64,000 bases of DNA from a virus. Taxonomy: Duplodnaviria > Caudoviricetes. The notes below the pieces were generated by a model. It was not told where the DNA came from and did no database searches. It was given only the letters and a program-made list of their open reading frames with translations. Within the stretch, counting starts at the first letter, position 1; each line of letters begins with the position of its first letter. The position numbers and the translations under genes are program-made. Shown one piece after another: positions 38,982 through 45,599 of this stretch. Location of the stretch: IMG/VR virus record IMGVR_UViG_3300044961_000667. One strand, given 5' to 3'.

Positions 38982-39524
38982 TCAGTCTTCCAGCTCGGTG
39001 TTCCAGTACGCCACCGAGGCGAGCCACTGCTTCCACGGCTCGGGCATGCCCTTCTTCCAGGTGAAGGTGAGCCGCACCGACTCGGGCAACGACTTCGGCT
39101 TCACCGGCACCTGCAGGAGCTTCATGCCTGCCTGCGCTGGCGTCCGACCGCCCTTCTTCTGGTTGCAGGGCGTGCACGACACCACGATGTTCTCCCACGT
39201 CGTGTGGCCGCCCTGCGTGCGCGGGACGACGTGGTCGTACGTGAAGTCGTGCCTGGGCACCTTCGCCGAGCAGTACTGGCACTTGCCCTTGTCTCGCGTG
39301 AAGACGTTCTCGCGACTGAACTTGATCGCCTTCTTCTTGCCGCGGATCGCCCGGAGGAACCGGATCACCGACGGCACCTTGAACTCCAACGTCATCGAGC
39401 GGACGGTCTTGTCCTCGTACTCCTCGACGACTTCCACCTTCTCCTCCCAGAGGAGGGTGATCGCCCGTTGCCAGCTCACGCGGGCAACCGGGGTGTAGCC
39501 AACATCGAGCACCAGCGTTTCCAC
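38982..39524 (-). CDS. HNH endonuclease (McrA-like)
   Basis: FSRENVFTRD..KCQYC...TYDHVVPR..GG.T.WENIV.SC..CN.KK. Confidence 0.9.
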   Translation of the reverse strand: METLVLDVGYTPVARVSWQRAITLLWEEKVEVVEEYEDKTVRSMTLEFKVPSVIRFLRAIRGKKKAIKFSRENVFTRDKGKCQYCSAKVPRHDFTYDHVVPRTQGGHTTWENIVVSCTPCNQKKGGRTPAQAGMKLLQVPVKPKSLPESVRLTFTWKKGMPEPWKQWLASVAYWNTELED

Positions 39525-39562
39525 GTTGCCCGTCCTTTCTGCGGCCTTCGCCGCGGTGAGTG

Positions 39563-39647
39563 TAGTCCCGGCCGGACTCGAACCGGCACGGCCTTTGTGG
39601 CCACTGGGGTTTGAGCCCAGCGCGTCTACCGACTCCGCCACGGGACC
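39563..39647 (-). tRNA. tRNA-Leu(CAA)
   Basis: Cloverleaf. Confidence 0.9.
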
Positions 39648-39652
39648 ATCTG

Positions 39653-39741
39653 TGCTCGGGGCGAGACTCGAACTCGCATGAGGCTTTCGCCCCACCGGCT
39701 TCTGAGGCCGGCGTGTCTACCGAAGGTTCCACCACCCGAGC
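39653..39741 (-). tRNA. tRNA-Leu(CAG)
   Basis: Cloverleaf. Confidence 0.9.
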
Positions 39742-39752
39742 ATGCACTTCAG

Positions 39753-39839
39753 TGGTCCGGGCGAGAGTCGAACTCGCATGATCTTTCGATCGGCAGGCTC
39801 TCAACCTGCTGTGTCTACCGGAGGTTCCACCACCGGACC
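39753..39839 (-). tRNA. tRNA-Leu(GAG)
   Basis: Cloverleaf. Confidence 0.9.
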
Positions 39840-39843
39840 AAAG

Positions 39844-40380: not shown

Positions 40381-40779
40381 TCAACCAACCACGTACTTCT
40401 CAGCCAACTTCACACCGGACTTCTGACCGTTCTTGGCAGGCTCGACCCGAAGCTGCCCGCCAACGGCCCCAACCTCCTCGACCGGGACCAGATACACCGC
40501 ATCCAACTCTGGGCAGTGGACGCCGAAGAACTCGACCTCACCGCGGTACGACTTTCTCCCAGTCCCTCGGTGAGCCGAGTTGCTGCTGGTGTCGAAGACA
40601 ACCGCTCCATTCTTGAGCCGCCCAGTCTTGCACTGCACTCGCTGGAACCCGGCATCAGTGTCGATCACCAGGTCGTAGCGCTGGTTCTCTCCAATCGGGA
40701 GCAGCACCGTCCTCCCGGTCTTGAGCAACGCCGCCATCACCGCACCCTCTGTTCTCGTCCCCTGCGCCTTGGTGTTCAT
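40381..40779 (-). CDS. PD-(D/E)XK endonuclease (PDDEXK_5-like)
   Basis: G...E...P.GENQRYDLVID...RVQCKT. Confidence 0.88.
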   Translation of the reverse strand: MNTKAQGTRTEGAVMAALLKTGRTVLLPIGENQRYDLVIDTDAGFQRVQCKTGRLKNGAVVFDTSSNSAHRGTGRKSYRGEVEFFGVHCPELDAVYLVPVEEVGAVGGQLRVEPAKNGQKSGVKLAEKYVVG

Positions 40780-40795
40780 GCTCCACATCTACCAC

Positions 40796-41072: not shown

Positions 41073-41161
41073 ATGGGCAGGCGGTGCTTTCGCCGAGCTG
41101 CCAGCAGTCACCACGTTCGTGACCCCGGCCCTGCTCGGTAGACTGCCACCTCTCCTGCTTG

Positions 41162-41480: not shown

Positions 41481-41485
41481 AACAG

Positions 41486-41568
41486 GGCGACTGGAGAGAA
41501 TCGAACTCTCACTGAGCTTTCGCTCGCGGGGTCACAACCCGCTGGGAACCCATTTCCCATCAGCCGCC
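41486..41568 (-). tRNA. tRNA-His(GTG) with a long variable arm
   Basis: G-1:C73; variable hairpin GAGC-GAAA-GCTC. Confidence 0.85.
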
Positions 41569-41697
41569 AGAAGAAATCTGCTCCACCCGAGTGAGGAAGG
41601 CATGAAACGGGTTTGAACCGTCTGGTCGATTTAGCAGATCGACTGATCACCAAGATCAGTAGTGCGTGTGAGCCATCCTCGGCCGGGTGGTGCAGAG

Positions 41698-41769
41698 TCC
41701 GCCGCAGTGGAATCGAACCACTTGCCTCTCGCTTATCAGGCGAGTGCTCTTCCAGTGAGCTACCGGCGG
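41698..41769 (-). tRNA. tRNA-Ile(GAT)
   Basis: Cloverleaf. Confidence 0.85.
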
Positions 41770-41862: not shown

Positions 41863-41899
41863 TCAGGTCGGCTGGGATCGAACCAGCGATCTCCTGCAT
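41863..41899 (-). pseudogene. 3' half of a split tRNA-Pro
   Basis: ATGCAGGAGATCGCTGGTTCGATCCCAGCCGACCTGA; acceptor CGACCTG pairs 7/7 with CAGGTCG at 42446-42452. Confidence 0.8.
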
Positions 41900-42327
41900 C
41901 ACCAGACGTGGTCACTGGCCAGCAGGATGTTCTTCTTGGCCCCATTCGCGGGGGCCTCCAATCTCACATGCAGGATCGACTTCCCCTGGAACTCCTCAGG
42001 CAGGAAGGCCGTCACCACGTCCATCTCAGGCAGATACACCAGAAGCAGGTCAACCTCCCCGACCTCATACTTCTTGAACGACTTGTTGCTCGGTCCCACC
42101 CACGTCCTCAGAGCCACAGTCGCCACGCCGGACGAATGAGACGACTTGCCGCCTCCATACTTCGCTTGGGCCCGGATCAACCTAACACCATCATCCAGAA
42201 CCAGATCGTACCTGGCATCGGTTGTGGGCCGACTGACGACAAACCCCTTCTCAATCGCCCTCTGCTGCGCCTTCAGCGATGCCACTTCACCCTTCTGCCT
42301 GGTGTCCACTTCTCTTGCGTACCACAC
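41899..42327 (-). CDS. PD-(D/E)XK endonuclease (PDDEXK_5-like)
   Basis: KG...GF.VS.P..DARYDLVLD...AQAKY; lower GC. Confidence 0.88.
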   Translation of the reverse strand: MWYAREVDTRQKGEVASLKAQQRAIEKGFVVSRPTTDARYDLVLDDGVRLIRAQAKYGGGKSSHSSGVATVALRTWVGPSNKSFKKYEVGEVDLLLVYLPEMDVVTAFLPEEFQGKSILHVRLEAPANGAKKNILLASDHVW

Positions 42328-42530: not shown

Positions 42531-42545
42531 GTGCAATCGATTGCG
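42531..42545. repeat. GTGCAATCGATTGCG palindrome copy
   Basis: Exact 15-mer, 2 nt before tRNA-Pro(TGG). Confidence 0.8.
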
Positions 42546-42712
42546 TTCAAAACTGTGCAGTGCGGACTGGCGGTTTGCACCCGCTGCACCGCATTGTCGG
42601 CCTGGCCTCAATAGGCCGCACGGTCCCACGCCGTCGAACGCCAGGACCTGCACCAACCACCGCCATGTTCGACCTGCCAAGCGGTGCCCGTTCATGCCGG
42701 GATGCTGCACAG

Positions 42713-45366: not shown

Positions 45367-45448
45367 ATACGGCTTTGTCGCTGACGGCCGCGCAGATCCT
45401 CGTGCGGAATGCACGAAGGACTGAACGTCTGCCGGCGACAGAAGCCAG

Positions 45449-45519: not shown

Positions 45520-45570
45520 AGATTCGGCCAGCCCGACTAGACGTCAGACAGGTGGCCGAACTGTCGCTGC

Positions 45571-45589
45571 TATCCAGTTTTCAGAGAAC
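45571..45589 (-). promoter_or_regulatory. rrn boxA-like element
   Basis: GTTCTCTGAAAACTGGATA resembles rRNA-operon GTTCTTTGAAAACTGAATA. Confidence 0.5.
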
Positions 45590-45599
45590 AGAACTGCGA

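Follow-up and report, generated by a model that had tools for sequence, protein, structure and literature searches.

A structured RNA in a phage tRNA array

The DNA analysed here, a 64-kb stretch that is called the window in the following, comes from a tailed phage with a large genome. It contains tail-like genes, and one of its proteins is also recorded on a contig of 200,091 bp. The window contains an array of 39 RNA genes (38 tRNA calls and one tmRNA), all of them on the minus strand. The tmRNA (37321-37700, minus strand; tmRNA call and tag comparison) encodes the tag ANDNVEAAPMLAAA, which mixes features of the Myxococcota tags ANDNVELALAA and ANDEPMLAAA. Judging by this marker, the resemblance of the tag points to a myxobacterium as the host of the phage.

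The element under study lies within this array and on its strand, in the 129-nt gap between tRNA-Ile(GAT) (41697-41769, minus strand), its upstream neighbour without an encoded CCA, and tRNA-His (41485-41567, minus strand) downstream of it; both neighbours are tRNA calls. The original prediction had placed a tRNA mimic with a long closing stem at 41578-41695, and all the motifs quoted for it are present, on the minus strand. The minimum free energy of this strand is -49.2 kcal/mol (z -4.63), and none of 200 shuffled sequences was equally stable. The fold contains a single strand of 13 nt and, as claimed, three hairpins closed by an interrupted helix. However, two bases (GT) belong to both the first hairpin and the anticodon-like arm, which therefore cannot be full length simultaneously.

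According to the fold, a homolog and the alignment of the family described below, the whole RNA is read as a Y-type RNA of about 120 nt (41577-41696), composed of a handle and a tRNA-like cargo. [quoted passage not shown] The 5' side of a 2x2 loop (CC) and of the upper helix follow (41672-41682), and then the conserved, single-stranded linker ACACGCA (41663-41669), exactly 10 nt after CCGGCCG. Both assignments come from the family alignment, in which the linker also occurs as ACACGCC/T or ACAAGC. The cargo consists of a D-arm-like first hairpin with a GG loop, UUGGU (41642-41660), an anticodon-arm-like hairpin with a 7-nt loop that starts with CU and is otherwise unconserved (41625-41643), and a canonical T arm with a 5-bp stem and the loop UUCAAAC (41606-41622). 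The first and the last of these rest on the fold and on the comparison with the syntenic contig L127, the second one on this comparison. The 3' strand of the handle (41577-41601; family alignment) provides the upper helix, the AC side of the 2x2 loop, UCGGG and the outer helix. With 61 nt, no acceptor arm and a variable region of just 2 nt, the cargo is a compact module. In the handle, GGCCGAG (41684-41678) is similar to two motifs bound by Rsr, GNCGAAN0-1G and GGUCCGA.

The closest relative of the element occupies the same slot in L127, a syntenic phage contig (nhmmer E 7e-18); apart from this contig, the proteins neighbouring the window element did not track the RNA. The stems are kept between the two phages, including a compensatory change from A-U to C-G in the first hairpin, which in L127 reads GCUC-AAGGU-GAGC and thus corresponds to the D-arm consensus. 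The anticodon-like loop, on the other hand, is CUGCUAA in the window and CUCAAUC in L127. Since the stems are kept while this loop changes, it is the shape that is conserved and not the anticodon. A mimic of the Ser anticodon is thereby ruled out, and the variable loop gives no support to the idea of a pure anticodon decoy.

Neither a tRNA call nor the Rfam tRNA model covers 41578-41695 in the window, and Rfam as a whole gave nothing at the locus, at the gathering threshold or up to E 10. Pxr, a three-stem-loop sRNA of Myxococcus, was considered as well and dismissed, as the locus matches no Rfam family. A blastn search of the element against annotated phages returned tRNA or chance matches only, and exact or over-specific DNA patterns derived from the window sequence alone found no match or chance matches. 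An unusual but functional tRNA would agree with the order of the arms (D, anticodon, T) and with the fact that ARAGORN calls the L127 homolog a tRNA-Leu(CAA) (L127:15599-15667). However, a 7-bp acceptor stem, a free 3' CCA end and a conserved anticodon are all missing, the window copy escapes tRNA detection, and the array already has genes for tRNA-Ser(GCT) and tRNA-Leu(CAA). We therefore regard this explanation as hardly credible.

A pattern search with the Ser anticodon retrieved other tRNA-like elements, none of which belongs to the family described below. Several phage contigs (L132, L138, L141, L153, L154, L176 and others) carry arrays of permuted tRNA-like RNAs in which the T, closed acceptor and D arms come after a GCU anticodon arm; these RNAs are YrlA-like, yet retain the anticodon arm. 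In the phage contigs L133, L137, L139, L187 and L197, tRNA genes combine a GCU (Ser) anticodon with a variable loop that is short, in contrast to normal tRNA-Ser.

The array itself holds further uncommon features. The tRNA-His gene (41485-41567, minus strand) is 83 nt long and possesses a long GNRA-capped variable arm, which is unusual for tRNA-His and is likewise seen in L127. Another structured RNA that is not a tRNA, with a length of about 165 nt (42545-42711, minus strand), is multi-branched, contains a T-arm-like hairpin with a loop starting with UGC and has no Rfam match; L127:15252-15417 is 84% identical to it, with flanking tRNAs that differ from those in the window. Between tRNA-Ala(GGC) and tRNA-Val(GAC) lies a long interrupted hairpin of 88 nt (41073-41160, minus strand; z -2.9), again without Rfam match, that is 82% identical to L127:16034-16121 and shows apparent compensatory changes. 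Two hairpin spacers at 45520-45599 and 45367-45447 (minus strand) share 85% and 69% identity with L127, and their folds are unchanged. A tRNA-Leu(GAG)-like gene (39742-39842, minus strand) was overlooked by ARAGORN and Rfam, and a tRNA with a CTA anticodon (36894-36971, minus strand; called tRNA-Pyl) might be an amber suppressor or a degenerate tRNA. Free-standing PD-(D/E)XK and HNH endonuclease genes are interspersed at 40381-40788, 41899-42327 and 38982-39695 (minus strand), and the one at 41899-42327, which is absent from L127, has partial tRNA-Pro copies on either side.

A handle family with permuted tRNA-like cargo

A covariance model built from two sequences, the window element and its L127 homolog, detected distant members weakly, and it was these weak matches that revealed the handle motif. 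Among them were two more distant phages of about 190 kb that share the outer part, CCGGC[C/A]G, 10 nt and ACACGCA ... CACUCGG. In these phages the handle encloses a circularly permuted tRNA in the order of YrlA, which reaches 36-38 bits with RF02553 by virtue of the tRNA part. The handle is thus defined as CCGGC[C/A]G-N10-ACACGC ... CACUCGG and comprises two helices, the 2x2 loop and the linker. A scan for it picked up 11 IMG/VR records with members and, in bacteria, 71 copies spread over 66 loci. The resulting family has 80 distinct members, to which about a dozen phage contigs and many Myxococcota genomes contribute. Within the 56 genuine bacterial loci with displayed names, 51 are explicitly myxobacterial and two belong to a 'delta proteobacterium'; the remaining three are assigned to 'Proteobacteria', a Gammaproteobacteria MAG and a Planctomycetota MAG. 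The family apparently has not been described before: neither a paper nor an Rfam family was found for the handle or for the Ro60 clade linked to it, in a literature search that covered few subscription papers.

The handle positions that are not fixed by the search pattern are paired in 96.3% of cases across the 80 members, compared to 71.0 +/- 0.9% in shuffled sets, where it should be considered that the members had been pre-selected by a pairing filter and that the shuffling ignores kinship. Many pair types occur per position, and of the genome pattern hits that lack a T loop just one in 31 passes the pairing filter. Covarying homologs do exist, and the prediction does not fail for want of them. 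The motif GNCGAAN0-1G is present with one mismatch in the window (GCCGAGG) and exactly in L127 (GCCGAAG) and altogether 13 of the 80 members, while a GGCCGA-like run of the form GGC-N-GA occurs in 48 of them.

The insert of the handle is a tRNA body of 31-101 nt that has been opened at different points. Using the position of the T arm, the 80 members can be sorted into rough cargo classes. The T arm comes first (T-acceptor-D-anticodon) in 38 members, 20 have the order V-T-acceptor-D or begin with the anticodon arm, 12 have a reduced cargo of anticodon arm and T hairpin, and five carry other cargo. The natural tRNA order D-anticodon-T, with the T arm last, is the rarest of the arm orders and is found in the window, L127, L336, L408 and L443 (5/80). 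One and the same handle is therefore combined with at least four arm orders, and the T arm is retained in 76 of the 80 members. The original prediction was right that the arm order differs from YrlA, and this holds for the family in general, in which several permutations occur.

The handles closest to that of the window are those of the phage copies L127, L308, L290 and L314, which are located in or adjoining the Ile/His slot. L308, in the same Ile-His slot, and L290 and L314, directly after tRNA-His, contain T-first cargo, which means that the module has been rewired within seemingly orthologous genes. One possibility is that such rewiring occurs when segments that extend across adjacent tRNA genes are captured. 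Judging from this natural series of permutations, in some cases at one genomic slot, it seems to be the T arm that matters, probably together with the D/T elbow, and not the arm order or the anticodon.

The short module of the window could also be taken as a sign of decay. It has 61 nt in a family ranging from 31 to 101 nt, no acceptor arm and a 2-nt variable region, as would be expected if a host RNA had been caught in the tRNA array and persisted as a spacer with an eroding module. However, L127 keeps the handle and the stems with a compensatory change, and intact handles are present in about a dozen phage contigs, several of them in the same slot, which makes such a passenger or relic improbable.

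Many of the bacterial copies stand alone, distant from the Ro60-like gene described in the next section. Directly upstream of 33 of 63 bacterial copies there is a promoter-like element, GTCAG-N16/17-CGTC, which occurs in 0.7% of control windows. It looks like a promoter of an alternative sigma factor and suggests that the stand-alone copies and the operon are transcribed together. Some handle RNAs have a divergently transcribed sigma70-region-2 (ECF-like) gene upstream of them (L374:6430-7101, L426, L359, L421). In L354, L403, L433 and L443 the unit of RNA and Ro60-like gene follows a gene for an HNH protein of about 175 aa.

The Ro60-like gene and its distribution

In 15 of the 66 bacterial loci with handle RNAs we found a gene for a protein of about 590 aa, annotated as 'VWA domain-containing protein'. 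Wherever it was checked, this gene lies directly downstream of the RNA and on the same strand, and this includes the loci from the Gammaproteobacteria and Planctomycetota MAGs. The Pfam model TROVE (PF05731) does not match the partner protein, and there is no TROVE match anywhere in five myxobacterial genomes with handle RNA. This would explain why searches for Y RNAs that were anchored on TROVE (PMC4201824) overlooked the system.

The similarity to Ro60 becomes evident at the level of predicted structure. An AlphaFold2 model of one partner protein (L374:4185-5945, minus strand) has a pLDDT of 78 and a pTM of 0.53. In Foldseek, the top 13 matches of this model are all Ro60 or Rsr proteins, aligned over the whole length (about 520-610 columns, best E 1.9e-9), among them a full-length match to 9KOP. 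VIA aligned the model with Xenopus Ro60 (1YVP; Z 13.9, 436 residues, rmsd 6.1) and Deinococcus Rsr (2NVO; Z 13.7, 419 residues, rmsd 5.6), and its remaining top matches cover the vWA domain only, which is located at residues 393-490. The pTM, the TM values of about 0.46-0.49 and the identities of 12-16% to Ro60 weigh against the match. As far as the model goes, the partner matches the Ro60/Rsr fold with a helical-repeat ring and a C-terminal vWA domain. Its Atlas neighbours are TROVE/DUF2828 at 0.84, which serves as a lead only; a DUF2828 search gave no match anywhere, controls included, and is therefore uninformative.

Of 111 sampled genomes of the phylum, 13 possess the Ro60-like gene. All ten close homologs (64-92% identity) are preceded by the RNA on their own strand, at a distance of 33-171 nt, whereas none of the three distant homologs (43-46% identity) is accompanied by a handle RNA. 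Genuine handle RNAs were detected exclusively in the ten genomes with the close gene; one further pattern match (G107) displays bases that do not resemble a member. As these ten genomes are related, they do not represent ten independent events. The constant position upstream of the gene and on its strand would also suit a leader or an autoregulatory element that acts in cis on the Ro60-like operon and is not a free RNA. However, no gene recurs consistently downstream of most copies, which have a promoter motif of their own, and the phage copies sit between tRNA genes. A regulatory leader is therefore a very remote explanation.

On the phage side, the RNA mostly occurs without the protein. Neither tblastn nor a profile of 90 sequences detected a Ro60-like gene in the 64-kb window, which covers about one third of a genome of about 200 kb. 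Of the six near-complete phages with the RNA, five lack both TROVE and the Ro60-like gene of the myxobacteria. In the sixth, phage G008, a TROVE+vWA_Ro60 gene lies on the strand of the RNA copy and about 0.7 kb upstream of it, but this Ro60 is of a different type, and its proximity to the RNA may be incidental to the tRNA-like array. This dense array of tRNA-like genes lies downstream of the phage Ro60 gene (L346:5240-6690), and many of its T loops begin with UGC instead of UUC. The vWA proteins of G001 and G002 were rejected as Ro60-like, as their vWA domain is N-terminal. Phage Rctr197k has a Ro60-like gene of a sister clade inside its tRNA array and no recognisable handle; the gene is an unnamed misc_feature (L238:10360-12309; KX853510.1, Rctr197k_235) encoding a homolog of the myxobacterial Ro60-like protein with 42-44% identity.

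The linkage and co-occurrence of the handle RNA with a Ro60-fold gene in bacteria support a Y-type reading, and at the level of the family they substantiate the earlier suggestion of a Y-RNA-like adaptor, with the closing helix being a conserved handle tied to the gene of a Ro60-fold protein. We consider it fairly likely that the window RNA is a phage-borne member of a modular family of Myxococcota Y-type RNAs that binds or otherwise engages a putative host Ro60, and the phage probably uses the RNA for this purpose. Points against this reading are the mismatch of the window to GNCGAAN0-1G, the small number of members with the exact motif and the sister clade of the protein (43-46% identity, with phage Rctr197k among its carriers), in which the handle is missing. 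The RNA would be cut out of the polycistronic tRNA transcript of the phage, its 5' end being created by the 3' processing of tRNA-Ile(GAT) and its 3' end, with a short U-rich tail, by RNase P cleavage at tRNA-His. With the GGCCGAG strand and the 2x2 loop, the handle might bind the outer surface of the host Ro60-like ring in the fashion of Y RNAs. The D/T hairpins might offer a surface resembling the tRNA elbow to an effector, such as PNPase or another tRNA-binding factor, and could protect the RNA. Since most of the phages have the RNA without the protein, the host Ro60 particle for RNA surveillance would most likely be occupied or redirected during infection, i.e. jammed or re-tethered.

It is also conceivable that RNAs of the same family use the handle for a different factor (PNPase, a ligase or an anticodon nuclease) and act as stable tRNA-shaped decoys independent of Ro60. 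The numerous bacterial copies away from the gene and the five phages without detectable Ro60 would fit this assumption, as would the Yrl RNAs of the Thermus phage phiLo, which bind PNPase without Ro60 (PMC12135203). However, the exact co-occurrence with the Ro60-like gene, including adjacency in ten of ten cases, speaks against another partner, and the unconserved anticodon-like loop argues against a decoy for an anticodon nuclease. We therefore judge a partner other than Ro60 to be rather unlikely.

A more far-reaching version of the Ro60 reading, which we put forward tentatively and with some doubt, is that myxobacteria run a modular Ro60-like RNP and that the orphan handle RNAs of phages hijack or jam this particle. 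Here, one promoter-linked set of two to five or more RNAs per genome would share the handle, and differently permuted tRNA mimics would select different effectors. If this were true, the phage RNAs would constitute an RNA-only counter-measure against the RNA surveillance of the host.

The present analysis adds the system on the chromosomes of myxobacteria with its promoter motif, the exact co-occurrence of RNA and gene and the existence of phages with the RNA but without the protein. [quoted passage not shown] In addition, a Ro60 clade that was hidden under the name 'VWA domain-containing protein' is revealed in Myxococcus, Corallococcus and Archangium. Since these are cultured and tractable, binding, regulon and phenotype are directly testable. 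The RNA-bearing phages without the protein suggest an RNA-only interference with host RNA quality control.

Comparison with known Y RNAs

Y RNAs bind Ro60 via the 5' strand of their terminal stem and tether it to effectors, e.g. PNPase (PMC4201824; 10.1101/312249). The strands bound by Ro60 or Rsr are GGUCCGA in vertebrates, GNCGAAN0-1G in YrlA and G7-G8-C9-G11-A12 in Yrn1 (PMC4201824; 10.1101/312249). With 120 nt (range 80-130), a long end-paired stem with a conserved irregularity and a variable loop domain, the window RNA exhibits the general traits of a Y RNA. A same-strand Ro60 ortholog within about 4 kb is found at the level of the family (10/10 close homologs; phage G008), and the window copy has no Ro60 gene beside it within the 64 kb. 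The RNA is thus Y-like in the broad class, but stands outside of YrlA with regard to both model score and arm order.

YrlA (RF02553), whose partner is Rsr/Ro60 (Chen et al. 2014 PMC4201824; Wang et al. bioRxiv 10.1101/312249), resembles the family in three respects: the ends are paired in a stem with a G-N-C-G-A-like 5' strand, the tRNA-like effector module has no free CCA end and, at the family level, the RNA is located beside a Ro60-fold gene on the same strand. Moreover, relatives with the order V-T-AS-D score 36-47 bits with the YrlA model through their tRNA part. These scores lie below the gathering score of 69 bits, and the window locus gives no match to the model even at E 10. There are also clear structural differences. 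The handle family has the 2x2 C[C/A]/AC loop, the fixed spacing of 10 nt and the ACACGC linker, and at least four permutations share one handle. In YrlA the order is V-T-closed acceptor-D and the Rsr stem replaces the anticodon arm, whereas in the window D-like, anticodon-like and T arms follow each other (D-AC-T) and the handle replaces the acceptor stem. Furthermore, the partner protein of the handle family is not detected by Pfam TROVE.

The Deinococcus RNAs Yrn1 and Yrn2 are similar in another aspect. Rsr protects G7, G8, C9, G11 and A12 of Yrn1 (PMC4201824), and this GGC-N-GA run recurs in the window as GGCCGA and in 48 of the 80 members. Yrn1 also possesses a T arm and an anticodon-like arm, in an orientation unlike YrlA, and is co-transcribed with a tRNA (PMC4201824). 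However, the window locus has no Rfam match, the 3' strand and the linker are unlike those of the Deinococcus RNAs, and the Ro60 belongs to another clade. Dictyostelid Class I RNAs (PMC7919456) share the layout of a terminal stem, a conserved single-stranded motif (11 nt) beside the 5' strand and a variable remainder. They are eukaryotic, measure 42-65 nt and have no tRNA module (PMC7919456); the comparison concerns the layout only, and here, too, the window locus lacks any Rfam match.

With respect to function, there is a parallel in the Thermus phage phiLo, whose Ro60 and Yrl RNAs bind the PNPase of the host and attenuate it (PMC12135203; PDB 9KOP, 9L5Y). By analogy with Yrl1 and Yrl2 (PMC12135203), the RNA described here might be another phage-encoded Y-like RNA that acts together with the RNA-decay machinery of its host. 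The two systems differ in the origin of the protein: phiLo encodes its own Ro60 and infects a host that has none, whereas most phages of the handle family carry the RNA only and it is the host lineage that has the gene.
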